Assembly: GCA_031972855.1 (NCBI GenBank)
Contig: DALYDY010000001.1
Location: 26,765-90,764 of the forward strand
DNA from: Minisyncoccota bacterium
GTDB taxonomy: Bacteria; Patescibacteriota; Minisyncoccia; Phycocordibacterales; UBA9973
Direction of reading: 5' to 3'
DNA length: 64,000 nucleotides
The notes under the pieces are model-generated. The model was not told the origin of the DNA and did no database searches. It saw only the letters and a program-made list of their open reading frames with translations. A program made the position numbers and the translations under genes. How positions within the stretch are numbered: position 1 is the first letter of the stretch; each line of letters opens with the position of its first letter. Shown in pieces: positions 2,956-35,630 of this stretch.

Positions 2956-4158
2956 TTATGCGATGATTTTAGTAACAACTCCTGCACCAACTGTCTTACC
3001 TCCTTCACGGATAGCGAAACGTTGTTGTGCTTCAAGAGCAACTGGAGTAACGAGTTTAACTGTAAGTTTTACAGTATCACCTGGCATAACCATTTCTATT
3101 CCTTCTGGAAGAGTTGATTCACCTGTTACGTCTGTTGTTCTGATGTAGAATTGTGGCTTGTAACCATTAAAGAATGGAGTGTGACGACCACCTTCTTCTT
3201 TCTTCAAAATGTACACTTCACATTCAAAGTGTGAGTGAGGAGTAACTGTTCCTGACTTTGAAAGAACTTGTCCACGAGTAACATCTTCTTTCTTAGTTCC
3301 ACGTAGAAGGATACCTGCGTTGTCGCCTGCCATTCCTTCTGATAGTGATTTGTTGAACATTTCAATACCTGTAACTGTTGTTTTTGCTGTATCTTTAATA
3401 CCAACAATTTCAACTTCTTCACCAACTTTTACGATTCCGCGTTCGATTTTACCTGTAACAACTGTTCCACGTCCTTCGATAGAGAAGATATCTTCGATAG
3501 GCATAAGGAAAGGTTTTGTAACATCGCGTTCTGGAACTGGAATGTAAGAATCAAGTGCATTTGCAAGATCCATGATTTTTTGTGCCCATGGGTCATTGTT
3601 GTCTGCTGATTCAAGTGCTTTTAGACCTGAACCACGAATAACTGGAGCTGTAGCACCATCAAAACCTTGTTTTGTAAGAAGTTCACGAACTTCTTCTTCA
3701 ACTAGATCAAGCATGTCTGCATCATCTACCATATCGCATTTGTTTAAGAATACGATTATTTTTGGAACACCAACTTGTTTTGCAAGAAGAATGTGTTCAC
3801 GAGTTTGTGGCATAGCACCATCTGTTGCTGCAACTACGATAATTGCACCATCCATTTGAGCCGCACCTGTAATCATGTTTTTGATGTAGTCAGCGTGTCC
3901 TGGAGCATCAATGTGAGCGTAGTGACGTGCTGCTGTTTCATATTCATTGTGAGAAAGCGCAATAGTAATCCCACGAGCTTTTTCTTCTGGGGCCTTGTCG
4001 ATACCATCGATACCAACTAGTTTTGCTGAGTAACCACCTCCTTGACGTGCAAGAACGTGAAGTATAGCCGCTGTAAGAGTAGTCTTACCGTGGTCAACGT
4101 GACCAATAGTACCTACGTTTACGTGTGGCTTTGAACGATCGAATGCTTCTGTTGCCAT
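2956..4158 (-). CDS. tuf: Elongation factor Tu
   Basis: 400 aa; G1 motif [18 protein letters not shown]-like motif, NKCD, full EF-Tu domain layout; directly upstream of rpsJ. Confidence 0.97.
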
Positions 4159-4742
4159 AAAATGTTTATTGGTTCGGTTTTAGTCTCTTACCGCATATTG
4201 TGAGAGACTATTTCCGAACATAAAGTTAAAATAATAAATATAAGGGTTTATCCTTATAAAAGTATAAATTAGGACTAAAAATCACTAATTTATCTAAATA
4301 AAAACAACCGAACATGCGGTAGAAGTAATACTAACAGAGATTGAGAAAAAAGGCAAACAGGAGCCCTCTCTTTATTGGTTTAATACAAAAACACATAAAA
4401 CACTTGAAAACCAAATCCCTGCTTGATTATTAAATACAAAAAAATAAAAAGCCCTTATTATAGGCTTTTGTTGAAAGTGATAAATCCTAAACTTATCATC
4501 TTTTTAAATTCTTTTAGGGTTTTTAGAAAACCTTTTGATAGGCCTCTATCAAGATCTTTTGAGGCTTCATATGAAAGAGATTTAACTCTACCCTGGTTTT
4601 CCATATTATCCAGAGCTTTCTGATAAGAAGAAATAAACTGGCTCATAATTTTTTATTTAATTTGTTTATTTAATACTATACCCTATTTAATATAAAGGCA
4701 AAATAAAATCCTTGTTGCGTATATTACACAACAAGGATACTT

Positions 4743-5246
4743 TTAAGATGCTTTACCTTTTAATTCAAATGAAGAGAGTAATCCCTCGCAATCTTCTATA
4801 AACTTTTTCATTAAATCATTTACTTTTTCAATAAGTAATTTAAAATTTTCGAAGTTCCTATCAGAAAGCTTACAGAAAGTTGAGTTTGATTTAAAAAAAG
4901 AATTATTTAAATTCTCAAAAAATTTAAAAGGTTTAGTAAAATTGGCTTTTATATTTTTTTCTAAATCTTTAATATTTTCAACGGTACCTTTTTTAAATAT
5001 TTCTGCCATTTCTTTAGAATACTCTTCTGTATTTCGATCTAATTGAGTCCAAAAATCTTGTACAGCGGAATAAAAATAAATATTTACACTTGAATGTAGT
5101 TCTACGATCTTTTTCTGGTATTCGACCAGATCATTATTTGTAAATAATTTAACTTTTTGATGATTTAAATACATCTCTTTAATACTTAGAAGATTATCAC
5201 TTCCAAGTCTAACAATATCTTCCCTTAACTGCTTATAAAATAACAT
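4743..5246 (-). CDS. Hypothetical K/E-rich helical protein (paralogue of 5317..5709)
   Basis: 167 aa; shares a WTQ motif and an F[DE]x[LF]K..IEK[IV]N[ND][VL] block with the neighbouring ORF; own hairpin terminator near 4710-4737. Confidence 0.5.
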   Translation of the reverse strand: MLFYKQLREDIVRLGSDNLLSIKEMYLNHQKVKLFTNNDLVEYQKKIVELHSSVNIYFYSAVQDFWTQLDRNTEEYSKEMAEIFKKGTVENIKDLEKNIKANFTKPFKFFENLNNSFFKSNSTFCKLSDRNFENFKLLIEKVNDLMKKFIEDCEGLLSSFELKGKAS

Positions 5247-5316
5247 TTTTATTAAATTTTACTATTTATAACACATATTTTACAAAAATAAAACCCCCCT
5301 TTCGGAGAGTGGCGGA

Positions 5317-5709
5317 TTAAGCATTTGCTTGTTCCGGTTTTGGTGTGTACTTTTCAACCACCAAATCAGCATTCTTTTTGAATTCTTCAACAACATTATT
5401 AATTTTTTCAATAGTGTTTTTTAAAATATCAAAACTTTCTTCACAAAAACTCTCGCTTCCTTTATTTTTATCAATAAAGGATTCTGTAAAATTTTGAATA
5501 CTTTGATTAATATCTTTCGTATCAACAATTTTGTCTTGAGTCCATAAATCAAAAGATTGTTTTATGATACCAAAACCTTCGGAAAAGAACTCACTAAAAA
5601 GTTCGAAACTTTTATCTTTGTGCTTTTTGTTTAAAGCAAACAAAGAATTCCAATAGTCTGTCGAAATTTTAGAGAGGTCATGCTTTTTAAGCATGTACAA
5701 TTCATTCAT
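5317..5709 (-). CDS. Hypothetical K/E-rich helical protein (paralogue of 4743..5246)
   Basis: 130 aa; tandem paralogue; sits between fusA and tuf. Confidence 0.5.
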   Translation of the reverse strand: MNELYMLKKHDLSKISTDYWNSLFALNKKHKDKSFELFSEFFSEGFGIIKQSFDLWTQDKIVDTKDINQSIQNFTESFIDKNKGSESFCEESFDILKNTIEKINNVVEEFKKNADLVVEKYTPKPEQANA

Positions 5710-5877
5710 CTCTTTTCTATATTTGCATTTGAAGCAAGAACACCTTTCATTACCGACTGAAATGCTGCATTTAGCATATTATCAATCAGAAGATTCAATT
5801 TTGTTTTTGTAAAATTCATACTTTTTTTATTTAGTTGTCTAAGCATATTACAGATAAAATAGTTTAATGTCAACAAT

Positions 5878-5918
5878 GAAAACACTAAAGGCGCCCTACG
5901 GGCGCCTTTAGTGTTTTT
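5878..5918 (-). terminator. Long GC-clamped hairpin terminator downstream of fusA
   Basis: AAAACACTAAAGGCGCCC-tac-GGGCGCCTTTAGTGTTTTT; same architecture as the hairpin at 10325-10366. Confidence 0.6.
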
Positions 5919-5942
5919 AACATTCTTTAATGTTACTTGTTT

Positions 5943-8084
5943 TTATTTACGATTTTTAATGATATCTTCAGCAACATTACTTGGAACAATATCGTAACGC
6001 AAGAATTCCATAGTAAATCCTGCGCGTCCCTCAGTCATTGAACGAAGCGCTGTCATATATCCAAACATTTCTGATAGAGGTACTATAGCATTAACAACTT
6101 GATTCATTCCACGACTTTCCATACCTTCAATCAGACCACGACGAGATGATAGTGATCCATTAACATCACCCATGAATTTATCAGGAGTAACGACTTCAAC
6201 TTTCATCATTGGCTCAAGAATAACAGGACGAGCAGCTCTTGCTGCGTCTTGAACTGCCATAGAAGCAGCAATTTTGAACGCCATTTCGTTTGAGTCAACA
6301 TCGTGATATGAACCATCATAAAGATCAACAGATACATTTTCCATTCTAAATCCAGCAACAACACCACGATCTAGACCTTCACGAAGACCTTTTTCAATTG
6401 GTGCCATGTATTCACCTGGAATTGCACCTCCTTTAATATTATTGATAAATTCAAAGAATCCATCACGCTTAACATTTTTTGGAAGATCTTTTGGATCAAC
6501 AGATAAGTCCATAGGCTTAATCTTAATCTTAACGTGACCGTAGTTACCTTTACCTCCAGATTGTTTAATGTATTTACCTTCAGCTTGCGATTCTCCAGTA
6601 ATTGTTTCTCGGTATGCAACTTGCGGCTTACCAACATTAGCTTCAACATTGAATTCACGCTTCATACGATCAACAATAATTTCAAGGTGGAGCTCTCCCA
6701 TACCTGCAATAATTGTCTCTTCAGTTTCAGGGTCAGTAGAAACTTTGAATGTAGGGTCTTCATCAGCAAGCTTATTAAGAGCCATACCCATTTTTTCTTG
6801 ATCAGCTTTTGTCTTTGGTTCGATACGAAGGTTGATAACCGGTTCAGGGAATTTGATACGATCAAGAGCTATTGGATTCTTTTCGTCAGATAGAGTGTCA
6901 GATGTTTTTGTATCTTTAAGACCAACAGCAGCTGCAATTTCTCCAGCAAAAACTTTTTTCACTTCTTCACGTTGGTCTGCTTGCATACGCACAATACGAG
7001 AAAGACGTTCTTTATTTCCAGTACGTGGGTTATATACATATGATCCAGCTTCAAGTGTACCTGAATACACACGGAAGAATACTAGTTGTCCTACGAATGG
7101 ATCAACCATACTCTTGAAGGCAAGAGCCGCAAAAGGTTCTGTATCACTTGGATTACGTTCAAGTGGCTCTTCAGTGTCAGGATTAACACCTGAAATAGCT
7201 TTAATATCATCTGGAGCAGGAAGATAATCAACCACAGCATCAAGTACGAGTTGAACACCTTTATTTTTCAAAGCAGAACCAGCGTACACTGGGAAGATAT
7301 TGTTTGCAATAACGGCTTTACGAAGAGTCTTTTTAAGTTCAGGAATAGAAGGGATTACTCCATCAAGATATGCTGTCATTTGGTCGTCATCATTTTCAAC
7401 GATCCTTTCAATAAGTTCATCATGATACTTTTTGGCTTCAGCCATCATATTTTCAGGAATCTCTTTTTGAACTACTTTGTTTCCCATCTCACCTTCAAAA
7501 TAGTAGGCTTTCATTTCAAGAAGATCAATTACACCTTCATGATTTTCTTCAAGACCTATTGGAATTTGTGCACGAACAGCTTTTTTTGAAAGGCGGTCAA
7601 GAATAGTACTGTAAGAATGTTCGAAAGAAGCACCAGTTCTGTCTAGTTTATTAACAAAACAAATACGAGGAACATTAGCTTCGTCAGCATAACGCCAGTT
7701 TGTTTCTGATTGTGGTTCTACACCAGCAACACCATCAAATACAACAACAGCACCATCAAGAACACGTAGAGATCTTTTTACTTCAACAGTAAAGTCAATG
7801 TGGCCAGGTGTGTCGATAATATTAAAACGATAACTATTTTTTTTGTCACCCTGAGAGTATGTAGGAATCCAGTTACAAGTAACTGCAGCGGCTGTAATAG
7901 TAATACCACGCTCTCTCTCCTGTTCCATCCAGTCTGTTGTTGTCTCACCATTGTGAACTTCACCAATTTTGTGACTCATTCCAGTGTAGTAGAGTACACG
8001 TTCTGAAGTTGTTGTTTTACCAGCATCAATGTGCGCAATAATTCCAAAATTACGTACTCGCGCTAGTGGATAATCTCGTTCCAT
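5943..8084 (-). CDS. fusA: Elongation factor G
   Basis: 713 aa; AHIDAGKTT G1 motif, full EF-G domain organisation; own TTGCAA-17-TATAGT promoter-like sequence at about 8190-8218. Confidence 0.97.
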   Translation of the reverse strand: MERDYPLARVRNFGIIAHIDAGKTTTSERVLYYTGMSHKIGEVHNGETTTDWMEQERERGITITAAAVTCNWIPTYSQGDKKNSYRFNIIDTPGHIDFTVEVKRSLRVLDGAVVVFDGVAGVEPQSETNWRYADEANVPRICFVNKLDRTGASFEHSYSTILDRLSKKAVRAQIPIGLEENHEGVIDLLEMKAYYFEGEMGNKVVQKEIPENMMAEAKKYHDELIERIVENDDDQMTAYLDGVIPSIPELKKTLRKAVIANNIFPVYAGSALKNKGVQLVLDAVVDYLPAPDDIKAISGVNPDTEEPLERNPSDTEPFAALAFKSMVDPFVGQLVFFRVYSGTLEAGSYVYNPRTGNKERLSRIVRMQADQREEVKKVFAGEIAAAVGLKDTKTSDTLSDEKNPIALDRIKFPEPVINLRIEPKTKADQEKMGMALNKLADEDPTFKVSTDPETEETIIAGMGELHLEIIVDRMKREFNVEANVGKPQVAYRETITGESQAEGKYIKQSGGKGNYGHVKIKIKPMDLSVDPKDLPKNVKRDGFFEFINNIKGGAIPGEYMAPIEKGLREGLDRGVVAGFRMENVSVDLYDGSYHDVDSNEMAFKIAASMAVQDAARAARPVILEPMMKVEVVTPDKFMGDVNGSLSSRRGLIEGMESRGMNQVVNAIVPLSEMFGYMTALRSMTEGRAGFTMEFLRYDIVPSNVAEDIIKNRK

Positions 8085-8218
8085 AAATAAATCTAAATGT
8101 TGTAGTTATTGGGTATAAACCCATCGTTAATAAAAAAAGGGACAAAACGTCGCTTATACAAGAAACTATACGGCAAAATCACCTTTTTTGCAAATAAAAA
8201 AGCCCTTATTAAAAGGAC

Positions 8219-9031
8219 TTACAGAACCTTGTTTTCCAAGGTTGTAAAAAACTCTTTAAAGGTTTCGAAATCTAGATTGTAGTTTTCTCCACATGAAAAT
8301 GTTTCTTGGGTTTTACCATACTTTGACTTGTTATAAGTCACATTTCCAGGATCAATAAACATTACAATTGAATTTCTTCCTTTTTCGGATGTTTCCTTTG
8401 TGTTTACCACTCTATGACAGAGCGCAGGAAACTCACATTTTGAATAATACTGCCCAAGAAGTCCTGGATAAGCAAGGATGTGATTAGCCATTTGACCAAC
8501 ATTAATCCATCTTCCTTTCCATAATACCTGAAATCCTGGAGCGTCTTCGGTGAAGTGTATTGTTATACCTTTGTCTACATGAGGTATAGCGAGTATTCCC
8601 CCTTCAACAAAATCACGAGACGGGTAATGAAGAAAACGAAGTTGAGCATTCATTACAGCTTCTTCAACCTGAAGTTCAGATAAGTTACCTAAGGTAACAA
8701 TATTAACAGCTTCTTTTATTAAATCCTTATTTTCATAAATAAAAGCAGAGGCAATGTTAAAAAAATTCATATCAATACCATTATAGGTATGAATATTATT
8801 TTCAAGATAATTCAAAGAAATGTGAAAATTTTCTTTAAAATCAGGATGTTCTGGACCCTTATACTCATATCCTCCATTCTCACCAAAAACAAAAGTTTTT
8901 TTGTGTTCCAATGGTTGGCTATGAAATTCAATCCATTTTGAAATCAATCTTTTAATGATCTCTTTATCGATTTGATGTGGAATAAAAACATATCCATGTT
9001 CTTTTAGACCGATTTGTTGCATATTATTCAT
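8219..9031 (-). CDS. 2-oxoglutarate/Fe(II)-dependent dioxygenase (isopenicillin-N-synthase-like fold)
   Basis: 270 aa; matches the 2OG-FeII_Oxy core RFLHYP..HVDKG(ITIH)..GFQVLWKGRWINV..CHRVV..RNSIVMFIDP, i.e. HxD...H iron triad plus RxS 2OG-binding motif. Inserted in the str operon with its own promoter. Confidence 0.7.
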   Translation of the reverse strand: MNNMQQIGLKEHGYVFIPHQIDKEIIKRLISKWIEFHSQPLEHKKTFVFGENGGYEYKGPEHPDFKENFHISLNYLENNIHTYNGIDMNFFNIASAFIYENKDLIKEAVNIVTLGNLSELQVEEAVMNAQLRFLHYPSRDFVEGGILAIPHVDKGITIHFTEDAPGFQVLWKGRWINVGQMANHILAYPGLLGQYYSKCEFPALCHRVVNTKETSEKGRNSIVMFIDPGNVTYNKSKYGKTQETFSCGENYNLDFETFKEFFTTLENKVL

Positions 9032-9082
9032 TTTTTATTAATTTTATCCTACTCTACTCTTTTTATAGATTTTGTCAAAAAG

Positions 9083-9107
9083 AAAAACCCTGGATTATTC
9101 CAGGGTT
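9083..9107 (-). terminator. Hairpin terminator after the 386-aa hypothetical
   Basis: AAAAACCCTGGATTATTCCAGGGTT. Confidence 0.5.
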
Positions 9108-9111
9108 CATG

Positions 9112-10272
9112 TTATGAACTAAGACCAATAAGAAGTATCTTCTCTCTTATAGGAAGAGACAGAATACTTTTTGCAGTTTTATCAGAAATAACATTTTTGG
9201 GTAATTCTTCAGAAAGTACCCGATGAGCATCAAGAGCTCCCACCGATGAATCATTTTTTAGGTTGATCTTTTGATCTTGAGATAAATAATTCTTCATCCA
9301 CAAACAATTTTTGGAATCAAACAACTTCTTTATTGATGAAAGTGGGAGTGATTGAACCAACTCTCTTTTTCCGACATACGCAACCTCTAAGAAAAAATTA
9401 AGTAAATCAATTGTGGTTGTAGATATACCTTTTTCTTTTACGTGTTTATTGAAAACTTCAATAAAGTTAGAAATTCCTTCTTCAACAGCACTCTCAACTT
9501 TCTCTGTATGTGCTGTACTTTTAGAAAACATATCACTGTTATAAGATAAGAATCCAAGACAGAGTGGCTCCGGATTATATCGATCATCACTAATATGTCC
9601 ACCAAATGAAATTATTACAGAAAAAATCTTGTGCAAATCTTCTGCACGAAGCTTCGAATTGTATATGTATTTCAACTTTTTTTCATCTGACAATACAACA
9701 AGAAGTTCACGAACCCATTCATAGGACTTATTTGATAATTTATTCACAAACGCGGAATATGTATTAGCGGATTTGAAACCAGCCTTATCATCCCTGTCTA
9801 AACATGCTGCTTCACGAAGAGTTTGATTCCGACTGTGTTCATCTATAAATGAGCTGACCTTCTTGTAATCATTATCAATAGAGATATCAGAAAGTTTTAA
9901 AACAAGACTTGCTTGCAATAAATTTCCAGGAATCAATTGAAACATTTCTGTGGGATTAATATCTTGAACTCCACTCCACACCTTAGAAAATTTATCAAGT
10001 TTTATAATTTCCTTTAAAAATAAGTTCCCCCTGGTTGGTTCTGTTTTTTTCTTATCTGTAAAAAGTTCTGCTTCAAAAAGGTTTTTAACCATTACAATCA
10101 ACACACTTATCGAAAGAAATTTCAAAAAATCTTTCTTACCATGGTCCCACAAAAAATCAGAAGTGGGGATGATGTATTTTTTGTCGAGAGCGTTTATAGC
10201 TCTTGCTTGAATTTGAGGAGTCTGACCTAGGACCTCGTCCCAGATCTTCTTTTTGATTTCATCTTTTTTCAT
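9112..10272 (-). CDS. Hypothetical protein (386 aa), inserted between rpsG and the 2OG oxygenase
   Basis: Long ORF with no motif I recognise; upstream TTGACA...TAGAGT promoter-like box almost identical to the one in front of the oxygenase. Confidence 0.5.
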   Translation of the reverse strand: MKKDEIKKKIWDEVLGQTPQIQARAINALDKKYIIPTSDFLWDHGKKDFLKFLSISVLIVMVKNLFEAELFTDKKKTEPTRGNLFLKEIIKLDKFSKVWSGVQDINPTEMFQLIPGNLLQASLVLKLSDISIDNDYKKVSSFIDEHSRNQTLREAACLDRDDKAGFKSANTYSAFVNKLSNKSYEWVRELLVVLSDEKKLKYIYNSKLRAEDLHKIFSVIISFGGHISDDRYNPEPLCLGFLSYNSDMFSKSTAHTEKVESAVEEGISNFIEVFNKHVKEKGISTTTIDLLNFFLEVAYVGKRELVQSLPLSSIKKLFDSKNCLWMKNYLSQDQKINLKNDSSVGALDAHRVLSEELPKNVISDKTAKSILSLPIREKILLIGLSS

Positions 10273-10324
10273 GATTATTTATTTTTTAATTTTCCTTTAC
10301 TCTACTCTTTTTATGTTTTTTGTC

Positions 10325-10366
10325 AAAACACAGAGTGGCGTCCTATGGACGCCACTCTGTGTTTTT
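10325..10366 (-). terminator. Long GC-clamped hairpin terminator downstream of rpsG
   Basis: AAAACACAGAGTGGCGTCC-tat-GGACGCCACTCTGTGTTTTT. Confidence 0.6.
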
Positions 10367-10436
10367 AAGATTCATACTCTTCGACTTCGCTCAGGGTAAA
10401 AATAAAAAACTCCGACAATGTCAGAGTTTTTTATTT

Positions 10437-10904
10437 TTACCAAGCAAAGTGAGCGAACGCTTTGTTTGATTCTGCCATTTTGTGAGTATCTTGTTTCTTT
10501 TTCACAGCAGTACCTTCATTATTTGAAGCAAGAATGATTTCTTCTGCAAGTTTTTGTGCAATAGGTACACCTTTCTTTGCGCGAGCAGCTTCTTTTATCC
10601 AACGCATTGCAAGAGCATTGCGACGTTCTGGACGAACTTCACGAGGAACTTGATAGTTTGCACCACCAATACGACGTGAGCGAACTTCAATCATTGGAGC
10701 TGCATTTTTAAGTGCATTATCAAAAACTTCCAAAGGATCTGTTCCTAGTTTTTCTTTTATAATATCAAATGCACCGTAAACAGCTTTTTCAGCTGTAACT
10801 TTTTTACCATCCCACATCATGTAGTTAATAAATTTACTTACACGTTCTACATTGTAGACTGCGTCTGGTTTTGCGATATTTCTATTTGTTACTTTTCTTC
10901 TCAT
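10437..10904 (-). CDS. rpsG: 30S ribosomal protein S7
   Basis: 155 aa; uS7-like N-terminus MRRK...[12 protein letters not shown].. Confidence 0.93.
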
Positions 10905-10913: not shown

Positions 10914-11333
10914 CTATTTTGCTGCTTTAGGGCGCTTTGCACCATAACGTGAACGACTTTTCATACGTTTATCTGGAGCAGTAGCGTCAAGACGACCACG
11001 AACAATAGTGTAACGTACACCGATCAAGTCTTTCACACGACCACCACGAAGCATCACTACTGAGTGCTCTTGGAGTTTGTGACCGATACCTGGAATGTAT
11101 GCTGTTACTTCTTCACCATTAGTGAGACGTACACGAGCGATTTTGCGAAGCGCTGAGTTAGGCTTCTTTGGAGTTGTTGTTGTAACCTTTGTACAAACAC
11201 CGCGTTTAAAAGGCGCAGGGTAATATACTGGACGGTTATGAATGTGATTGAAACCTTTCGCAAGAGCAACAGCTTTTGAGCGCTTTGTTACTTTTGTGCG
11301 GTTTTTCTTAATAAGCTGACTAATTGTAGGCAT
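10914..11333 (-). CDS. rpsL: 30S ribosomal protein S12
   Basis: 139 aa; uS12 hallmarks PTISQLIKK.., ..[10 protein letters not shown].., ..VRGG(R)VKDLPGVRY-like. Confidence 0.95.
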
Positions 11334-15378: not shown

Positions 15379-16266
15379 TTACTCACAAACCAAAATCATA
15401 CTCTTAGGGAAGCATTTTATCGTCCCTTCTGTACTTGTTTCCAAATATGTAATTTTCAAAAAGTTTAATCTATCGGTAATTTCTTTGTGTGGGTGTCCAT
15501 ATGAATTATTAATACCAGCCGAAATTATTGCGACTTTTGGCTGAACAATTTTTAAGTATTCTAGAGATGTAGAAGTTCGAGATCCATGATGTCCGAGCTT
15601 CAATATATCTGCACGTAAATTGTCACCGTCTCTATTTATTAAATATAATTCTTTAGAAGCTGGAGAGTCTCCTGTCAGTAAAACATTTCCGTAAGGAGTC
15701 TCGAGTATCCCTACGGTTGAAGCTTCATTGGTCTCCCACCCTGTTACATCTTGATCTGGAAAAATAATACGGAAAGTTATTTGATTCTCTTTATCAAGTA
15801 CAATATTCATTCCAGCTCTTGCAAGTAAATGAGGGATATCTTTTTCTTTTATTAAATTTTGAAATGATGAATATATTTTTGAACTTGAAGAAACTCCTGG
15901 CTCCAATATCGCGCCAACATTATAATTATTCAAAACATCAACCAATCCTCCGATGTGGTCTGCATCTGGATGAGTGCCTATTACCACATCAATACTAGTA
16001 TCATTTACCGGTAATACTTCTTTCAACTTACTCAAGACTTTCTTATCTCTACCTCCATCAACAAGTAATTGTCTACTGTTTGGAGCTTGAATCAATATAC
16101 TATCACCCTGCCCAACATCTAAAAATGATATAGAAAAATATTCTTGAGACTTTTTGTTCTTAAACAAAAATATAGATGACCCTATTGTTATTAAAATAAG
16201 AATTAAAACAATTCTCCAAAGCCATTTGGTTGACTGCATAATTCTAGTATAATAGGAATTATGCAA
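15379..16266 (-). CDS. ComEC C-terminal-like metallo-beta-lactamase domain protein
   Basis: N-terminal TM helix; DVGQGDS.., HPDADHIGG, ..LGHHGS MBL-fold motifs typical of the ComEC/Rec2 nuclease domain; encoded separately from the ComEC channel domain. Confidence 0.7.
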   Translation of the reverse strand: MHNSYYTRIMQSTKWLWRIVLILILITIGSSIFLFKNKKSQEYFSISFLDVGQGDSILIQAPNSRQLLVDGGRDKKVLSKLKEVLPVNDTSIDVVIGTHPDADHIGGLVDVLNNYNVGAILEPGVSSSSKIYSSFQNLIKEKDIPHLLARAGMNIVLDKENQITFRIIFPDQDVTGWETNEASTVGILETPYGNVLLTGDSPASKELYLINRDGDNLRADILKLGHHGSRTSTSLEYLKIVQPKVAIISAGINNSYGHPHKEITDRLNFLKITYLETSTEGTIKCFPKSMILVCE

Positions 16267-16866
16267 AAATTCATAGAAAAAACTTTTGAGATCCCAGAAC
16301 TATCAGGAATAAGTACTAAAAATATAGAAGAACATCTAAAACTTTATAAAGGATACGTAAACAACACCAATAATGTTGTAGAAAAAATAAGTAAATTGAG
16401 TGAAGAATTTTTCCGCGATGGAGCTGATAATTCATATCTTATAGCAGAACTCTTCCGCCGCTTTTCTTTCGAATACAATGGAATGAGAAATCACGAAGTT
16501 TATTTCAGTTCCTTATCTGGAGGACCAAAAGAACTTGATCCAGAAAGTGACCTCGCGAAAAAAATATCACAAGAATGCGTGTCTTTCGAAATATTCATGA
16601 CGGGCTTCAAAAATATTGCTCTCACTCGTGGTGTTGGATGGGCAGTACTGTGGTATGACAAGCGCGAAGATAGACTTATCGCTTCATGGGTGGACGAACA
16701 ACACTTAGGCCAATTGAATGGTTGTGAAATGATTCTCGCTATCGATATGTGGGAACATGCATATGTATATGACTTCCCCACATCAGCAAAGAAAGACTAT
16801 GTTGAAGCATTCTTCAAAAATATAAATTGGAGCGTAATCGAAGAAAATTTTAACAAAGCAAAATAA
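16261..16866 (+). CDS. sodA: Fe/Mn superoxide dismutase
   Basis: 201 aa; GWAVLWYD.., ..DMWEHAYVYDF (the DxWEHAYY metal-site motif). Confidence 0.9.
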   Translation: MQKFIEKTFEIPELSGISTKNIEEHLKLYKGYVNNTNNVVEKISKLSEEFFRDGADNSYLIAELFRRFSFEYNGMRNHEVYFSSLSGGPKELDPESDLAKKISQECVSFEIFMTGFKNIALTRGVGWAVLWYDKREDRLIASWVDEQHLGQLNGCEMILAIDMWEHAYVYDFPTSAKKDYVEAFFKNINWSVIEENFNKAK

Positions 16867-17201: not shown

Positions 17202-18509
17202 TTATTTTTTATTGTCAAAACTTTTTAAAGAAAAATAAAATATAAGTGTATATATAAAAATTAAAAACCAAATAGAAAATTCAGGTATATACATTACAGA
17301 AGTAGAAACACTCGAAACAAAGCTAATTATTTTTAAGATCAAAAATAGAAGATATTCTAAAATAACAGAAAAAGGTATTGCGAGCGGTAAATATATCAAT
17401 CCAAAAACTCCAACCAAAAATGAAAGAAGCATCGCTAAAGGAATAAGTGGAATAATTAAAATATTTATAGGAATAGAAAATACAGAAACAATACCTGTAG
17501 AAAATATTATTAGAGGCAGTACCATGAGAGTCGCTCCCAAGGTCGTTGCGAGAAGTTCTCTAATACCAAACCTCAATGTTATAAAAAATAAATATTTAAT
17601 TATTTTTGGAGCAATCACAATAACTCCAAAAGTTGCAAGAAATGACAATTGAAATGAAATATTAAAAATAACTTTTGGTTCAATGAGTATCATAATAAGA
17701 CCTGCTATCACAAGTGTACGAAGAGCAATGTTGGTGCGTCCTGTATATTTTGCTATAAGAACAATGATAGCCATAATACCAGCCCGTACAGCAGTCGCCG
17801 AACCTCCTGTCATAATTACAAAAAATATAATTCCAATAATTCCTCCAAAGATTGAAACATTGAATGAAAATATTTGTCGAAGTACAGATGTAATACTCTC
17901 TGCAACTATAGTTATGTTGTACCCAGACAAAGCGACAATATGAATAGTCCCTGTTCTAACAAAATCATCTTTTATTTTTTTATCAAAACCAGTTTTGTCT
18001 CCAAGTAATATTCCATTGGCTAACGCACTCTCATTCCCGTACAAAAGTTTATTAATAGAATTTTTAAAATTATTTTGAAAGGAAAATAAAAATCTTTTTA
18101 TAGAATATTTTGGTCTATCTATTTTAGATATTTTAGATCCTGAAATTATTGCTAGAATATTTTGAGATTCAAGATAAGTATCATATGCAAATTCTCTACC
18201 ATTATCAGTCTCAAATGGTTCTGGTTTTTCTAATTTTCCCGACAGTTTTATTTTGTCTCCAAAAAATACTTTTGGATTTTCATAAGTTCTTACAAGTACT
18301 AAAAAATTTTGATTATCAGGTCTAACATTAAAAGAAAAAGTATATTCACTTTCTACAACAGGTGAAACGACCTTACCAGACACTATTACCTTTTTATCAA
18401 AATTATCTTTGAAGATATTTGGGAGAGTTGTTGAGAATAAAAAAAGCCGGACCAAAGTTATAACACCCACAAGTCCGACCAAAATAATATCTACATATTT
18501 TTTATTCAT
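17202..18509 (-). CDS. comEC: ComEC/Rec2 competence channel domain protein (N-terminal part)
   Basis: 435 aa; N-terminal OB/DUF4131-like region then a polytopic competence domain (many TM helices, ..GYNITIV.., ..GGSATAVRAG..). Confidence 0.7.
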   Translation of the reverse strand: MNKKYVDIILVGLVGVITLVRLFLFSTTLPNIFKDNFDKKVIVSGKVVSPVVESEYTFSFNVRPDNQNFLVLVRTYENPKVFFGDKIKLSGKLEKPEPFETDNGREFAYDTYLESQNILAIISGSKISKIDRPKYSIKRFLFSFQNNFKNSINKLLYGNESALANGILLGDKTGFDKKIKDDFVRTGTIHIVALSGYNITIVAESITSVLRQIFSFNVSIFGGIIGIIFFVIMTGGSATAVRAGIMAIIVLIAKYTGRTNIALRTLVIAGLIMILIEPKVIFNISFQLSFLATFGVIVIAPKIIKYLFFITLRFGIRELLATTLGATLMVLPLIIFSTGIVSVFSIPINILIIPLIPLAMLLSFLVGVFGLIYLPLAIPFSVILEYLLFLILKIISFVSSVSTSVMYIPEFSIWFLIFIYTLIFYFSLKSFDNKK

Positions 18510-25465: not shown

Positions 25466-26593
25466 TTATTTTAAAACATCTATTCCTACCAGAGTTCCTT
25501 TTGCGAGGAATTCAAGTGTTGCCCCTCCTCCAGTTGAGACAAAAGTGAATTTGTCTGTGAGTTTCATTTTTTGGACGAGAGTTACTGTATCACCTCCCCC
25601 AATAATAACTTCAGTCTTTTCTAGTTTTGCCAAACCTTTCAATAATTCTTTTGTTGCCTTGTCGTATCCGTGTTCATAAAATCCGAGAGGTCCATTCCAC
25701 ACAACAAGCTTTGAAGATTTTGCTAGCGCGAGAATTTCTTTTACAGTAGAGGCTCCAATATCTACAATCTTTTCTGTTTCTGTTGTTTCGGCAACGGTAC
25801 ATGTATGTGATGCACTATTTTCTTCTACTACTACATCCATAGGAAGGAAGAAGTTTTTGTGTTTCAAAATATTCTTTGGAACTTCAAATCCATCATCTAC
25901 GAGAGATGTTCCAACTTCAAATCCAGCACTTTTGAGAGCGTTGTTTGCAAGAGCACCACCAATGAATACAGAGTCAGCACTTTCAAGGTATTTTTTCAAA
26001 AGAGGAAGTTTTGTAGAAAACTTCGCCCCTCCAAGTATAAAAAGAAATGGGTGTTTTGGTTCGAGAACTTTTGAAAGATTTTTTATTTCTTCTTCGAGTT
26101 GAAGCCCAGCAAATGAAGGGAGATGTTTCGCAATTCCAAAAACTGAAGCATGTTTTCTGTGAGAAACTGAGAAAGCATCGTTTACATATAAGTCACCCAT
26201 ACGAGACAGGGATCTTGCAAGAACAGTATCATTTTCTTTTTCACCAGCAAAACGACGGATATTTTCGAGAAGCACAATATCCCCTCCTATCATTTTATCT
26301 GTAAGTTCTTCTATCTCTCTAAGATTTGTTGTTGGGAGAAATACTGTTTTTATTTTTTTATTCAAATATTTTGCAACAGGAGCGAGAGTTTGTGTTCCGT
26401 CTTCACCTAAGTGAGCGAGAAGAATAACTCTTGCTTTTTGTTTCACCAAAAATTCAATAGTTGGAAGGGCTTTGTCTATACGAAATGTATCTTGTATTTT
26501 TCCATTTTCAATAGGAACATTGAAATCAACACGAACAAGAACTTTGTTATTTTTTGATGTTAGTTTTTCTTTGATTTTTTTGAGTGTTTGCAT
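25466..26593 (-). CDS. pgk: Phosphoglycerate kinase
   Basis: 375 aa; VRVDFNVP N-terminus, PGK fold throughout; bidirectional terminator hairpin at 25428-25456. Confidence 0.93.
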   Translation of the reverse strand: MQTLKKIKEKLTSKNNKVLVRVDFNVPIENGKIQDTFRIDKALPTIEFLVKQKARVILLAHLGEDGTQTLAPVAKYLNKKIKTVFLPTTNLREIEELTDKMIGGDIVLLENIRRFAGEKENDTVLARSLSRMGDLYVNDAFSVSHRKHASVFGIAKHLPSFAGLQLEEEIKNLSKVLEPKHPFLFILGGAKFSTKLPLLKKYLESADSVFIGGALANNALKSAGFEVGTSLVDDGFEVPKNILKHKNFFLPMDVVVEENSASHTCTVAETTETEKIVDIGASTVKEILALAKSSKLVVWNGPLGFYEHGYDKATKELLKGLAKLEKTEVIIGGGDTVTLVQKMKLTDKFTFVSTGGGATLEFLAKGTLVGIDVLK

Positions 26594-27365
26594 ATTGTTT
26601 ATTCTTTTCTTTTAGTTTGTCGTAAGCGTTATTAATAATTCCTGTGAAATCCTTTGGTGAAAGCGAGACTCTACCTATAAGGAGTCCTGTTACACCTTGT
26701 ATATCCATAAAAGATTGCGCGTTAGCTTTGTCTACTGACCCACCGTATAGAACTTTTATGTCGTGAGCTATTTTTTCACCAACAATATCAGCAACGACAC
26801 GACGAATAAAGATGGTCATTTCTTCACATTCGCTTGGAGTAGAAGACCTTACAGCATCTTTACCTATTGCCCATATTGGTTCATACGCGATAACAACTTT
26901 TTTTATTTCGTTTGAAGTAAATCCTTCAAAGGCTTTGAGAATTTGTTCTTTTACTACATGTAGATACCAATGTTCTTCTGTTCTTTCTTTTTCTCCAACA
27001 CAAAGAACTGGAGTAATACCCTGTTTTAAAACGCTTCGCAATTTTTGAGAAACAATTTCATCAGTATCACCACTCCCTCTCATTTCTGAGTGCCCTACCA
27101 AACAATAAGAAACTTTGTATTGTTTTAAAATAAATGCAGATATTTTACCAGTGTATGCACCGAGATCTACTTCAAAAGCATCTTGTGCTCCAATAGAAAT
27201 ATTTTTACTTATTAATTTTGAAAGTTCTGGTATATAGAGAGTTGGAGAACATATGACAGCTTTACTATCTTTTTGCAATCCTTTTTTTATTGCTTTAAAA
27301 GTATTAATTGCCTCTTTTGAAGATTTTGGATTTAGTTTCCAGTTTCCAATAATTAGTGGTTCCAT
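26547..27365 (-). CDS. tpiA: Triosephosphate isomerase
   Basis: IGNWKLN, ..VGHSE.R.., ..AYEPIWAIGKD.., GGSV motifs. Confidence 0.93.
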   Translation of the reverse strand: MEPLIIGNWKLNPKSSKEAINTFKAIKKGLQKDSKAVICSPTLYIPELSKLISKNISIGAQDAFEVDLGAYTGKISAFILKQYKVSYCLVGHSEMRGSGDTDEIVSQKLRSVLKQGITPVLCVGEKERTEEHWYLHVVKEQILKAFEGFTSNEIKKVVIAYEPIWAIGKDAVRSSTPSECEEMTIFIRRVVADIVGEKIAHDIKVLYGGSVDKANAQSFMDIQGVTGLLIGRVSLSPKDFTGIINNAYDKLKEKNKQYANTQKNQRKTNIKK

Positions 27366-27402
27366 ATCTGATATTATACACCACTATATGAAGTCTTAAA
27401 AA

Positions 27403-29172
27403 TTATTCTGTTTCACTCCAACCACTAGGTGTCCAAGATCCGGAAGGTCCAGAATTAAAGTTCATGTCAGCAAGTCCGGATTCATATTCAACTTCAGCCG
27501 AACCAGAAAGTGTAACTCTATAACCAGTCGCTTCTTTTGCTTTTGCTGATCCAGAAAAATTGATTGTCCCATATGGTGCATACAAAACAACAGAGCCAGC
27601 TGATCCAGAAACATTTATTGCATTGTAGCCACAAGTAGCAGAATCACAGTTTGATAAAGCTATCATTAGAACATAACTACCATTTTGACCTGTTCCATTA
27701 ACTTGTCCACTTCCTCCATTATCAAATTTACCATCTGTAATAATAATTCCACTACTGTTTCCATAAGAAGCGGAAGCTAAAACAATTTTACCAGAACCAG
27801 AGAGTGTTATGTTTCCTGTAACCCAAAGTGTTCCTGAAACATAAAGAGTTCCACTTCCTCCAACAGTTAGATTACCGACAATCTTTTTTGGACCAAGAGT
27901 TGCTGTATTACTTCCAGAAACATCATAGTTTCCATTATGAGTTCCTCCAGCTAAAGCTTCTTGTTTCCATTCTTCAATATTACCTTCAGATATTGGGAAT
28001 TCTTGGTATGCTGGATCGGCTTGAGTTGTATTACATATTTTATTGTTTCCTGTACCACTCTGACAATAAAGAGATCCTGTTACATTTGTATAGTTAACAG
28101 TATTTGCTCTCGCATCACCACTTGTAGTACCTACTCGAAATTGATTCCATTGACTACCTGAATTTCCAGCAATTCTTCCATTTATACTAGACAAGAATAC
28201 ATTAAAATAAAAATCAAGAGTTGAAGGTGAAAGATTACTCCAAGCACCAAACACTGCACCTTTTTTTGAAGCGCCAGGAATATATCCAGCATTATTTCCA
28301 CCTGCAGAGTAATATCCTCCACCTGAAGTTGTTGTCATAACAATCCAGTAAGTTGTACCGGCTGTTAATGTAGGATTTGTTGTAAAACTAATATCAACCC
28401 AACCATACGATGTGGATACTTGAGAAGAAGAAAGTGTACCTTGAGCAAGTGATCCGAAGCCAGGATTACTTCCATTGTTTGGCAATATATAGACAGTTGT
28501 ATTATAAGGATTTCCAGTTTTCTTTAGGTATAGCTGAACCTTACTCAATTGAGCTGTTGTTGTTAATTTGAAACTTTGAGCTATATCAGTATTTGAAGTA
28601 TTACCTACAGAGATATCGTAAGTTGGAGTTCCTTCGCCGTTATATTGATCAGCTGTTGTAGGACTATTTGCAGATGTAGCTGAGCCTGTAATTGAAGCTG
28701 AGCCATCACCCGTGATTGGTCCGTTTGCGTATACGTTTCCTTTTATTTTTGCACTTCCTGTTAAATTGATACCTCCTCTACCAACTTGAACACCGTAGTT
28801 AAAAGAGACACCTGTATCTTGTGTAATAGTAAGTCCTAAGTTTCTTTCATAAGAGTCCATTTGTCCAGTAGAATTGATTTGTTTTTGATTTGTATTAATT
28901 GTACTTATTATTGAAGTTGAAGATGAATCACCTAGTACAAGAGTTTCTGTTGTATCTATTGTTATGTTGTTTTTTATTCTATAAAAAGCATCTTCTATCC
29001 CAGATTCTGCTAGAAAATAACTTTGTTCTGATTTTAATTTTGCATGATTAGTTTTAAAATCTCTTGCTATTGGACTAATTATACCTGTGGTTATTGTTGC
29101 ACTAGCTAAAGCAAAAAATAAAACCACTATAGTCATTGCTGCTCCACTTTGATTCTTTAAAGTTTTTTTCAT
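27403..29172 (-). CDS. Large PilX-like minor pilin / tip-associated protein
   Basis: 589 aa; N-terminus ..QSGAAMTIVVLFFALAS.. resembles the PilX_N/TadG-type pseudopilin helix; rest is Gly/Ser/Thr/Asn-rich; last gene of the pilus operon. Confidence 0.5.
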   Translation of the reverse strand: MKKTLKNQSGAAMTIVVLFFALASATITTGIISPIARDFKTNHAKLKSEQSYFLAESGIEDAFYRIKNNITIDTTETLVLGDSSSTSIISTINTNQKQINSTGQMDSYERNLGLTITQDTGVSFNYGVQVGRGGINLTGSAKIKGNVYANGPITGDGSASITGSATSANSPTTADQYNGEGTPTYDISVGNTSNTDIAQSFKLTTTAQLSKVQLYLKKTGNPYNTTVYILPNNGSNPGFGSLAQGTLSSSQVSTSYGWVDISFTTNPTLTAGTTYWIVMTTTSGGGYYSAGGNNAGYIPGASKKGAVFGAWSNLSPSTLDFYFNVFLSSINGRIAGNSGSQWNQFRVGTTSGDARANTVNYTNVTGSLYCQSGTGNNKICNTTQADPAYQEFPISEGNIEEWKQEALAGGTHNGNYDVSGSNTATLGPKKIVGNLTVGGSGTLYVSGTLWVTGNITLSGSGKIVLASASYGNSSGIIITDGKFDNGGSGQVNGTGQNGSYVLMIALSNCDSATCGYNAINVSGSAGSVVLYAPYGTINFSGSAKAKEATGYRVTLSGSAEVEYESGLADMNFNSGPSGSWTPSGWSETE

Positions 29173-29173
29173 A

Positions 29174-29668
29174 TTAATAATTACCTCTAAGAGAAACTGT
29201 TTGATAAAAATTTTCTGTAATTAAACCATTACCACCATTAATTGAAGTTTGTAATTCTATTTTTACACCTTCACCTGTTGCTGTAGTTATTTTTCTAAAT
29301 ATTAGACTAGATAGAGTTAATTTACTTGAAAGAATATTCCCAGAAAGCACACCATTTTCTGTAAGGTTAATTGAATTTCCAGACACATCAAAACGAACAA
29401 TTTTTGAACTTGGTTGATTTAAAACAAGAACTCCAGGATTTGTACCAAAAGTACTACTTACACTATTTATACTTTCTGATTTTCTAATTTCTCTAGTGAA
29501 CCGCTCCATTGTTTTTGTTCCAACACTGATCAAATAACGACGAGCTACGACTTCTTTGAAAGAACTGTTTGAAATACTGTATGAATAAATAATTACACCA
29601 GACAAAACCACAAAAATAAGAAGATAAATTAGAACTTCGATTATTGTTGATCCTTTTTGTAGTCTCAT
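29174..29668 (-). CDS. Type IV pilus minor pilin (pseudopilin)
   Basis: Prepilin-type N-terminus QKGSTIIEVLIYLLIFVVL. Confidence 0.7.
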   Translation of the reverse strand: MRLQKGSTIIEVLIYLLIFVVLSGVIIYSYSISNSSFKEVVARRYLISVGTKTMERFTREIRKSESINSVSSTFGTNPGVLVLNQPSSKIVRFDVSGNSINLTENGVLSGNILSSKLTLSSLIFRKITTATGEGVKIELQTSINGGNGLITENFYQTVSLRGNY

Positions 29669-29673
29669 ATAAA

Positions 29674-30168
29674 TTAGAAAATATTAAAAATATAAAGTTG
29701 TAATTGCTTTGTTACAGTTCCTTCTTTAGTATTGAAAGTTGTTGTTATTGTAAAAAGTTTACTATTACTGTCGAGAGTTCCAGTACTTGCAATGTCATTG
29801 TTTACATCTCTATAAACATTTGAGACTGTAATAATTCTAGTGAAATAATCTATAGTATTGGGTGTTTGTGAAAGAGACCAGAGATTAGTAGTAGTATTAA
29901 AATAAAGATAATAATTCGTACCGACTTGAAGACTTGAGATATTTGTCCAAGAATTATCGCGAATAAGACGAACTGCTTCAGCTCCTTCTGACAATAAGTT
30001 TGTTGTTTGAACCTCTTTTAAAGCTCTATTTGATAGAGTTATTCCTTTTGTTGAAACAAATGATATAGCTAAAACCAAAGAACTAACAATAGCTGAAGCA
30101 ATAATAACTTCAATCAAAGAAAATCCTAAATTTGGTTTAAGAAAACTTTTTTTCATTTTAATTAACAC
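29674..30168 (-). CDS. Type IV pilus minor pilin (pseudopilin)
   Basis: N-terminus ..LGFSLIEVIIASAIV.. Confidence 0.7.
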   Translation of the reverse strand: MLIKMKKSFLKPNLGFSLIEVIIASAIVSSLVLAISFVSTKGITLSNRALKEVQTTNLLSEGAEAVRLIRDNSWTNISSLQVGTNYYLYFNTTTNLWSLSQTPNTIDYFTRIITVSNVYRDVNNDIASTGTLDSNSKLFTITTTFNTKEGTVTKQLQLYIFNIF

Positions 30169-30664
30169 TCACTGATCCTGTTTTTAAAACAGTTATAATT
30201 TTATTTGTCGAAGGGAGTGTGGTGAGTGATATTGTTATTGTACCATAATTATTTGTATCACCAGTGAGTCTAGCGAAGCTTAATGTCTGTCCTCCACCAT
30301 TTAGTGACCATGCAGCTTGTACACCATTTTCATATAACAGAATTTCATTACCTACAGCACCTTCAGTAAAATTTGTACCAGAAAATAAAACCACTCTTGT
30401 AGACTCAATACGTACAGAATATTGTAAACCATTTAAAGAATTTAATGTTTGGTTTTGAGCTTTTTCAATAACAGAAATTATTTGAGAAGATGTTGAATTT
30501 AAATTATTTCTACCTCTAGAATTTTTTATATTTGGCAAAACAATAGCAAGCATTAATAAAAGTAGTCCGAGAGCTATTATTGTCTCCATAAACGTAAACC
30601 CATACACCAAAATTTTTGGTGTATGGGTAAAACCTAGAATGTTTTTTGTGTAGAAATTTTTCAT
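30158..30664 (-). CDS. Type IV pilus minor pilin (pseudopilin)
   Basis: N-terminus ..YGFTFMETIIALGLLLLMLAI.. Confidence 0.65.
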   Translation of the reverse strand: MKNFYTKNILGFTHTPKILVYGFTFMETIIALGLLLLMLAIVLPNIKNSRGRNNLNSTSSQIISVIEKAQNQTLNSLNGLQYSVRIESTRVVLFSGTNFTEGAVGNEILLYENGVQAAWSLNGGGQTLSFARLTGDTNNYGTITISLTTLPSTNKIITVLKTGSVSVN

Positions 30665-30667
30665 AAT

Positions 30668-31870: not shown

Positions 31871-31875
31871 ATTTT

Positions 31876-33633: not shown

Positions 33634-33738
33634 TAAGTATATTTTCTCACAGACTTTGATTAATAGCACGAAAAAATTTGTGTATAAAATAAAAAATCCC
33701 AACAATTATTTTAATCAGTTGGGATTTTTTATTTTTTA

Positions 33739-35244: not shown

Positions 35245-35245
35245 A

Positions 35246-35626
35246 TTATGGACAAACTATTAATTTACCAATACTAGATACGCAAAGTTCTCTGTTTGTA
35301 GGAGACGTACCAGAAAGTTTACTTACGGTTAAATTTGTAGTATCTAAATTATAATTTATTTGTGTATTTGCTGGAACAATGAAACCATTAGTGAATAATG
35401 TACCAATTATATCAAACATAACACCAGGTGTTGGAGAATTAGACGTACCCACAGCAAGAGCTGATGTTCTCATTTGAGGAGAAGATGAATTTAAAACAAA
35501 AGGTGATACTGGTTGACTATTTGGATATGTACCACTTGGCCTTACCGCAAAAGTGTGTACTGCATTTGATAAAAGAACAATACTTATAGATACAAAGAAT
35601 AAATGTGTTATTGATATTTTTTTCAT
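35246..35626 (-). CDS. Small secreted protein, paralogue family member
   Basis: 126 aa; signal peptide; ends ..TNRELCVSSIGKLIVCP. Confidence 0.5.
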   Translation of the reverse strand: MKKISITHLFFVSISIVLLSNAVHTFAVRPSGTYPNSQPVSPFVLNSSSPQMRTSALAVGTSNSPTPGVMFDIIGTLFTNGFIVPANTQINYNLDTTNLTVSKLSGTSPTNRELCVSSIGKLIVCP

Positions 35627-35630
35627 ATAT

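Follow-up and report, generated by a model that had tools for sequence, protein, structure and literature searches.

Organisation of the interrupted str operon

The window, a 64 kb (64,000 nt) stretch of contig DALYDY010000001.1 from a Saccharibacteria-like Minisyncoccota bacterium to which all coordinates below refer, contains a str operon on the minus strand, in which rpsL and rpsG are followed by an open reading frame (ORF) of 386 aa (ORF386) and by the gene of a 270-aa Fe(II)/2-oxoglutarate (2OG) oxygenase before fusA is reached (Table 1). The Pfam assignments of the flanks confirm this gene order, which had been read by a first-pass annotation based on the DNA letters. Its description of an interrupted rpsL-rpsG-fusA-tuf block is likewise correct for the interruption but not for the position of tuf, as two or three orphan ORFs intervene between fusA and tuf. 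The oxygenase gene, which is the subject of this report, appears from its flanking signals to be a self-contained unit with its own promoter-like site and terminator hairpin, placed in a gap whose other contents come and go between related strains.

Transcription signals divide the region into separate segments, and rpsL-rpsG and fusA each carry promoter-like or terminator signals of their own. Both inserted genes end in a hairpin terminator and fusA possesses a TTGCAA-17-TATAGT site, as the first-pass annotation had stated; TTGCAAAAA-type sequences with TATAGT or TATATT as -10 element also precede fusA in four other loci (L007, L008, L009 and L005 in our numbering of the loci surveyed below). 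In each of the six lineages read for this purpose (window, L007, L008, L014, L020 and L011) the ribosomal gene is parted from the oxygenase unit by a terminator hairpin with T run, and a promoter stands ahead of the unit. By these signals the link between the oxygenase and the ribosomal genes is positional and not co-transcriptional. Downstream of rpsG two strong terminators stand in tandem about 35 nt apart (10325-10436), possibly left behind by a cassette since lost. The Rfam scan of the window for regulatory RNAs returned four tRNAs only, and the predicted folding of the fusA leader of about 80 nt is not stronger than that of shuffled sequence (z -0.8).

The promoter-like sites of ORF386 and the oxygenase share the form TTGACA-N16-TAGAGT, and their likeness extends as far as the start codons. 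The underlying pattern TTGACAAAA-N3-ATAAAAAGAGTAGAGTA occurs exactly twice in the 64 kb, with 0.00 copies expected by chance. These two copies resemble each other more than the generic promoter of the genome, which is represented in the window by 15 TTGACA-N16/17-TAnnnT sites, mostly 14-26 nt ahead of an ORF. The oxygenase promoter is identical in kind in L002, L006 and L007, and diverged yet recognisable in L008, L016 and L003; the form TTGACAAA plus A-rich spacer plus G-TAGAGT, located right behind a terminator, occurs upstream of the oxygenase in L002, L007, L008, L016 and L003. The same TTGACAAA/G-TAGAGT form is also found ahead of unrelated gap genes in L005, L008 and L009, so that the promoter does not mark the end of a mobile cassette. 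The near-identical promoter cassettes of the first-pass annotation thus stand as sites but not as mobile units. Their interpretation as mobile or attC-like repeats was dropped for this reason, and also because the adjacent hairpins differ in sequence. The element is rather a lineage-typical promoter form and probably a strong promoter. The two copies of L007 are identical across 32 nt, which would fit gene conversion or promoter-to-promoter recombination when the slot gene was replaced.

Table 1. Coordinates of genes and transcription signals in the 64 kb window
Feature	Position	Strand	Basis or remark
rpsL (uS12), upstream conserved flank	10914-11333	-	Pfam Ribosom_S12_S23, 1.4e-32
rpsG (uS7), left border of variable gap	10437-10904	-	Pfam Ribosomal_S7, 4e-59
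First terminator 3' of rpsG	10400-10436	-	free energy (dG) -17.7 kcal/mol, z -7.0, then T run
Second hairpin terminator 3' of rpsG, abutting ORF386 promoter	10325-10365	-	19-bp stem, dG -34 kcal/mol, z -9.9
Promoter-like site of ORF386, TTGACA-N16-TAGAGT	10298-10326	-	exact 29-nt pattern match
ORF386, 386 aa, variable-slot orphan	9112-10272	-	no family assigned
Terminator of ORF386	9085-9108	-	10-bp stem and T run, dG -15.6, z -4.6
Promoter-like site of oxygenase, TTGACA-N16-TAGAGT	9050-9078	-	exact 29-nt pattern match
Oxygenase, 270 aa, Fe(II)/2OG-dependent (predicted)	8219-9031	-	PF03171
Terminator of oxygenase	8200-8220	-	dG -8.5, z -3.3
Promoter-like site of fusA, TTGCAA-17-TATAGT	8165-8193	-	promoter scan
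fusA (EF-G), right conserved flank	5943-8084	-	all EF-G Pfam domains present
Second variable slot, fusA/tuf junction	4159-5942	-	orphan ORFs within 4743-5885
tuf	2956-4158		beyond fusA and the orphan ORFs
CarboxypepD_reg-domain protein, 545 aa	11443-13080		directly upstream of rpsL
Fe/Mn superoxide dismutase	16261-16866		7 kb from oxygenase
ComEC competence gene	17202-18509
TIM-PGK pair and type IV pilus cluster	25466-37960		T2SSE, T2SSF, pilins
302-aa ORF (mechanical)	57547-58455	-	overlaps tRNA-Gly
tRNA-Gly	58363-58434	+

Structural class and active site of the oxygenase

The 270-aa protein is predicted to be a catalytically complete Fe(II)/2OG oxygenase of the isopenicillin-N-synthase/ACC-oxidase/plant-dioxygenase structural class. 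PF03171 (2OG-FeII_Oxy) matches residues 148-228 with 26.9 bits against a gathering score of 23, the DIOX_N match to the N-terminal half is weak, and all four motifs quoted for the 2OG-Fe(II) core in the first-pass annotation are present in the translation (LRFLHYP, PHVDKG, CHRVV and GRNSIV). The annotation had suggested to verify the HxD..H triad and the fold, and both are borne out. H151, D153, H206, R219, S221 and R132 are invariant and Y136 is nearly so in 26 aligned sequences, and the AlphaFold model, with a predicted local distance difference test (pLDDT) score of 94 and a predicted template modelling (pTM) score of 0.90, displays a double-stranded beta-helix. In a profile alignment the triad H151/D153/H206 coincides with H214/D216/H271 of thymine dioxygenase (T7H) from N. 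crassa (PDB 5c3p), whose 2OG-binding residues R190, Y194, R286 and S288 correspond to R132, Y136, R219 and S221. Because all 2OG ligands of T7H have conserved counterparts, the enzyme should use 2OG as cosubstrate.

The closest relatives by sequence and fold fall in the isopenicillin-N-synthase/plant-dioxygenase-like class. All 58 matches of a PDB sequence profile search are small-molecule enzymes or uncharacterised relatives of the same class, and none is a protein hydroxylase; the nearest are 3on7 and 3oox, followed by plant dioxygenases, thymine dioxygenase, AdaV, ACC oxidase and ethylene-forming enzyme. Thymine dioxygenase ranks first by fold, and the translation-component hydroxylases score far lower (PPHD bound to EF-Tu 12.0, Tpa1 10.8 and OGFOD1 10.6). 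The oxygenase falls outside the prolyl-4-hydroxylase-like structural subfamily and does not contain the JmjC/cupin-4 catalytic domain of YcfD/RoxA, NO66 and MINA53. Its viral structure matches are generic 2OG oxygenases. As the oxygenase fold fills all 270 residues, no extra nucleic-acid-binding domain is present. The family is mildly acidic (median isoelectric point (pI) 6.1, net charge -4), which argues against a nucleic-acid polymer as substrate and does not separate the other options. With regard to base composition, the oxygenase gene and ORF386 have 29-34% GC like other non-ribosomal genes of the window, and a foreign origin receives no clear signal from this comparison.

Relatives and their genomic context

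A first search yielded 32 relatives of the oxygenase, and a word-seeded profile search among 5.8 billion sequences retrieved at least 261 cluster representatives at E<1e-5, by which measure the family appears small. Its members have about 270-280 residues and occur mainly in Patescibacteria; the named relatives are mostly Saccharibacteria, Paceibacterota and Wolfebacteria, with few other bacteria such as Parachlamydiaceae. The viral contigs scanned contained no relatives. Loci were collected by a genome scan with 13 closer sequences and a metagenome scan, the latter giving two loci.

The synteny survey of related genomes proposed by the first-pass annotation revealed that the insertion is not unique. 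Nine loci place the oxygenase in the rpsG/fusA gap: the window, L006 (99%), L017 (91%, partial), L001/L002 and L007 (80%), L005 (44%), L008 (43%), L009 (40%) and L019 (37%, upstream side cut off), where percentages here and in the following two sentences denote oxygenase identity to the window copy. Three further ribosomal junctions are occupied, namely the position after secE-nusG-rplK (L014/L015/L010, 39%; L013, 38%, with an ATP-grasp ligase gene in between), the site between rplB and rpsS, where a NUDIX gene accompanies the oxygenase (L011/L012, 30%; a metagenome-assembled genome of the Patescibacteria group on a Parcubacteria-type branch), and the site between rpsP and a KH-protein gene (L020/L021, 40%). 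The four junctions are thus S7/EF-G, after L11, L2/S19 and S16/KH. In a rough neighbour-joining tree the S7/EF-G cases are spread across the entire Saccharibacteria clade and the other positions are single clades or tips; the S7/EF-G position is probably ancestral in this clade. The first-pass annotation had allowed that the protein might prove unrelated to 2OG oxygenases or the insertion private to this genome; neither is the case, because of the PF03171 match with its conserved residues and of the relatives at ribosomal junctions.

Other copies reside away from ribosomal genes. In L003 the oxygenase gene lies in a DNA-repair neighbourhood between genes for UvrD-type helicases and near an HhH-GPD glycosylase gene, in L018 it follows a TIM-PGK pair and is convergent with HinT, and in L016 (1099-3098; 53% identity) it is followed by pyrF. 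L016 also contains a convergent 355-aa gene with weak likeness to orotate phosphoribosyltransferase, in which the acidic phosphoribosyl-pyrophosphate-binding motif is apparently missing. L022 and L023, which are placed on a Parachlamydiaceae-like tree branch outside the candidate phyla radiation (CPR) and are 43-45% identical to a Parcubacteria copy, embed the gene amid methyltransferase, hydrolase and kinase genes; in L023 it begins 31 nt after an S-adenosylmethionine (SAM)-methyltransferase gene and precedes LuxR-type and hydrolase genes. Our literature searches returned no publication that describes a 2OG oxygenase from Saccharibacteria or Patescibacteria or inserted genes within their ribosomal operons; the single paper retrieved, PMC9297842, is confined to ribosome reduction.

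Turnover of genes in the rpsG/fusA gap

The gap itself is highly variable. An all-against-all BLASTP comparison of the ORFs lying up to 4 kb from the oxygenase in 16 loci detected, apart from core genes, no gap gene but the oxygenase that is common to the lineages. L005 harbours 4 and L009 7 further unrelated genes between rpsG and fusA, the latter including a histidine phosphatase gene and one gene whose product, by our own reading of the translation, seems to start with a pilin-like hydrophobic N-terminus. L019 contains a 160-aa gene in the gap and a 621-aa gene between fusA and tuf, and L011 has additional genes in two places, between S10 and L3 and behind L5. The fusA/tuf junction of the window behaves as a second variable slot with ORFs at 4743-5246 and 5317-5709 and a 59-aa piece at 5706-5885 (24-29% GC); in L007 the first of these ORFs is 57% identical and the second is swapped for an unrelated 193-aa ORF. 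A 1-nt deletion relative to L001 at about 5722/5723 breaks a 176-aa ORF into the 59-aa piece and the 130-aa ORF (5317-5709), reflecting either a pseudogene or an assembly error.

ORF386 exemplifies the transient occupants. It matches no Pfam, NCBIfam, PADLOC or PHROG family above threshold, its all-helical model is of low confidence (pLDDT 59), and Foldseek reported no match to this model at E<0.001. An exhaustive search of 1.84 billion representatives found five homologues, two of them full-length with 31-33% identity, and among the surveyed loci only the window and L006 possess the gene (98% identical). A suspected distant kinship with the 338-aa gene beside the oxygenase in L009 was discarded as there is no similarity. 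In L007 an unrelated 162-aa ORF fills the slot behind the same promoter, and in L002 the slot is taken by yet another gene, despite fusA protein identities of 99-99.6% in these two loci. ORF386 is a real but very rare gene, and we infer that it is an unrelated strain-specific passenger; the suggestion of the first-pass annotation that it might be the partner of the oxygenase is contradicted by its replacement in L007 and L002 and its rarity.

Sequence comparison between the window and L002 points to exchange by recombination. In fusA the DNA is 99.6% identical with a four-fold-site difference of 1.5%, and in the oxygenase gene the values are 82.9% and 26%. The breakpoints are sharp: at the stop codon of the oxygenase gene identity drops from about 1.00 to 0.68-0.88, and at the 5' end and promoter of this gene it is back at 0.93-0.97; the right-hand breakpoint, at about 8240 in the oxygenase terminator region, is marked by a rise from 0.77 to 0.97-1.00. 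One more small mosaic patch is visible in L017. In L007 a remnant of the rpsG 3'-end (…CTCACTTTGCTTGGTAA) with its terminator flank has been left at 7236-7300, about 90 nt beyond the stop codon of its own rpsG, which is a recombination scar. Protein identity of rpsL is 100% in L006 and L007; that of rpsG in L007 is 93.5% and hence lower than that of rpsL or fusA (99%).

No integrase, transposase or other mobile-element family was found among the gap ORFs with Pfam, PADLOC and PHROGs. A defence-system or phage origin of the gap genes was rejected, since PADLOC gave zero matches and PHROGs only two unannotated families. Saccharibacteria are naturally competent and integrate DNA via homology arms of about 1 kb (PMC10633639), and transformable bacteria typically have hotspots that lack mobile elements and lie between core genes undergoing recombination (Oliveira et al. 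2017, PMC5635113). ComEC and a cluster of type IV pilus genes are found in the window itself. Being highly conserved, ribosomal and factor genes are ideal homology arms, which offers a non-functional reason for the gathering of accessory genes at their junctions. The slot is remodelled by homologous recombination anchored in the conserved flanks, with even the oxygenase coding sequence being swapped as an allele. In the loci compared the oxygenase is the sole slot occupant kept across lineages, while the others, including ORF386, come and go.

Further features of the window

The TIM-PGK pair of the window stands beside the type IV pilus cluster, and the oxygenase homologue of L018 directly follows the same pair. 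The nearby superoxide dismutase gene fits an oxygen-exposed lifestyle. Directly upstream of rpsL, the CarboxypepD_reg-domain protein shows hydrophobic, membrane-like stretches by eye, and similar proteins are encoded in L007 (about 78% identity), L008 and L013. The uS12 motif reads KDLIGVRY, with isoleucine, in the window, L005, L008 and L009, i.e. in all Saccharibacteria loci seen; the E. coli counterpart, KDLPGVRY, carries at this position a proline (P90), a classical site for mutations with a streptomycin phenotype. The tRNA-Gly gene is overlapped by a mechanically called 302-aa ORF on the opposite strand, the 5' part of which is probably non-coding.

Possible function of the oxygenase

We give even chances to the proposal that the gene specifies an accessory oxygenase, autonomous and housed in a recombination hotspot, that acts on a small polar substrate, with a nucleotide-type compound as the leading guess. 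According to this proposal, the target of the enzyme would be a small polar metabolite and neither a ribosomal protein nor an elongation factor; the leading candidate would be a pyrimidine or another nucleobase, nucleoside or nucleotide, handled in salvage or in the removal of aberrant nucleotides. The repeated position at ribosomal genes would then mainly reflect the use of these junctions as landing sites by accessory genes in the very small genomes of naturally competent bacteria. The narrower assignment of a nucleobase, nucleoside or nucleotide as substrate is tentative and, taken by itself, rather doubtful. It is guided by the neighbouring genes, which comprise the NUDIX (MutT-like) gene 24 nt upstream of the oxygenase in L011, a MazG-like gene behind the L014 copy (thyA, folA and a gene for dCMP deaminase are close by), pyrF in L016, HinT in L018 and the repair genes of L003. 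A nucleotide-metabolism gene is the immediate neighbour in 4 of the 7 contexts outside the S7/EF-G gap, for which we roughly estimate a chance probability of about 0.003. Several points weigh on the other side. Four of about seven independent positions touch a ribosomal-protein gene (p ~0.002, a rough estimate of our own that assumes such contact for about 9% of junctions and is unweighted for hotspots), a signal similar in strength to that of the nucleotide genes; the nucleotide-related neighbours are housekeeping genes of a sort frequently met in genomes so small; and context covers approximately 20 of the at least 261 family members. Moreover, the tyrosine that covers the base in T7H (Y217) is an invariant lysine in the oxygenase family, the mild acidity would suit basic ribosomal proteins as well as small molecules, and in L013 the gene between rplK and the oxygenase (L013:4902-5924) encodes an ATP-grasp ligase of the cyanophycin-synthetase/GshAB type with weaker similarity to the RimK family, a possible clue should the oxygenase have a peptide or protein tail as its substrate.

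The first-pass annotation had proposed a hydroxylase of the translation apparatus, and its positional part, the association with translation genes in relatives, holds true on a broader scale than the annotation had supposed; the hydroxylase function has become doubtful in view of the terminators, the fold class and the hotspot. We consider it unlikely that the oxygenase hydroxylates a translation component (uS12, uS7, EF-G or EF-Tu) and thus represents a new bacterial ribosomal oxygenase from a small-molecule fold class. The settlement of four ribosomal or factor junctions, the occurrence at S7/EF-G in nine loci with oxygenase identities as low as 37%, the spread of this position over the Saccharibacteria clade, suggestive of long retention amid gap-gene turnover, the RimK-like similarity of the L013 neighbour and the acidity of the enzyme would all be in line with such a role. 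Against it stand the absence of any protein hydroxylase among the 58 PDB sequence matches and the terminator that parts the unit from the ribosomal gene in every case checked. The same gaps also house many unrelated orphan genes, the oxygenase alleles are swapped between strains, no partner gene is conserved over the 16 loci compared, the family is apparently small for its search space, and the non-CPR relatives L022 and L023 are not near ribosomal genes. A variant, in which compact small-molecule-class oxygenases have been recruited to the ribosome or a translation GTPase as a third structural type, would explain the independent settling at four junctions and is likewise rather improbable in our judgement.

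The replacement of the base-covering tyrosine by lysine would equally suit a non-nucleotide small molecule, such as an amino acid or a host metabolite, the ribosomal as well as the nucleotide-gene neighbourhoods then being a coincidence of the very small genome. Arginine would be an example, as it is a substrate in ethylene- or guanidine-forming enzymes. The closest solved relatives, 3on7 and 3oox, are uncharacterised and leave room for such a substrate, and the surroundings in L023 (SAM-methyltransferase, LuxR-type and hydrolase genes) are compatible with it. However, Patescibacteria have few small-molecule pathways, and the nucleotide-metabolism genes next to the oxygenase in 4 of 7 contexts speak for another type of substrate; this alternative is unlikely as well. 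Lowest in probability, and to be regarded as very unlikely, is the oxidation of a base within RNA or DNA, for instance of the methyl group of m5U or thymine, or the stripping of alkyl damage. Such an activity would connect the biology of ribosomes or tRNA to the repair-gene surroundings of L003. The best fold match, thymine dioxygenase, has a chemistry parallel to that of TET and JBP (PMC4787775), the L003 copy is surrounded by helicase and glycosylase genes, and the ribosomal neighbourhoods are compatible too, but acidic to neutral proteins without an additional nucleic-acid-binding domain would be unusual as polymer binders.

If the favoured reading, an accessory small-molecule enzyme in a hotspot, is right, the junctions of the str, S10, L11 and S16 operons, which are among the most conserved in Saccharibacteria, are recombination-anchored slots for accessory genes, and a ribosomal gene neighbourhood is therefore weak functional evidence in these genomes. 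Organisms with almost no metabolism would furthermore have conserved an O2- and 2OG-dependent enzyme, whose substrate, possibly a salvaged nucleotide, would inform on what the episymbionts take from their hosts. Should the enzyme act on translation instead, ribosomal oxygenases would gain a further structural class, translation in these ultra-small episymbionts would prove to be modified in an oxygen-dependent manner, and Patescibacteria would have a link between oxygen sensing and translation. The pattern of four junctions is a surprising lead, although a non-functional explanation is at hand. As the oxygenase is small and confidently modelled, it is directly accessible in vitro.

Comparison with known systems

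The enzyme kind and the hotspot kind are both known; the subfamily to which the oxygenase belongs is uncharacterised, and its location is unusual. The top sequence matches of the oxygenase among solved structures are 3on7 (Shewanella SO_2589; 2.6e-18) and 3oox (Caulobacter CC_0200; 2.8e-12), uncharacterised oxidoreductases of the "iron/ascorbate family" from free-living Proteobacteria with about 21-26% identity to the oxygenase. The three proteins are of comparable compact size and have the motifs D-x-KE-x-x-H, LR(L/I/F)LHYP and RxS...F in common. Relative to T7H the oxygenase is about 60 residues shorter, and no iso-orotate decarboxylase partner was seen. In T7H the base is sandwiched by F292 and Y217, the latter of which can be replaced by Phe or Trp only (PMC4787775). 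F292 corresponds to the invariant F225 of the oxygenase, Y217, the second base-covering aromatic residue, to the invariant K154, and N294 to D227. An orthologue of thymine dioxygenase is ruled out by the replacement of Y217 by lysine.

The hydroxylases of translation components offer a comparison of another kind. PPHD is a prolyl hydroxylase of EF-Tu, and OGFOD1/Tpa1 are prolyl hydroxylases of uS12. These enzymes, as well as YcfD/NO66/MINA53, resemble the oxygenase in being Fe(II)/2OG enzymes with a double-stranded beta-helix core, and the oxygenase gene adjoins genes for protein kinds, uS12 and EF-Tu, that known translation hydroxylases modify. However, they belong to other structural subfamilies, either prolyl-hydroxylase-like or JmjC/cupin, and are absent from the PDB profile matches.

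The hotspots described in PMC5635113 and the rpsG/fusA gap share a rapid gene turnover between fixed core flanks, the lack of mobile-element genes, breakpoints in or next to the flanking core genes and a naturally transformable host lineage. The gap differs from these hotspots in that its flanks are genes of the classical str operon, so that this operon is broken up into several units of transcription, and in that one occupant, the oxygenase, has been kept across deep divergence.

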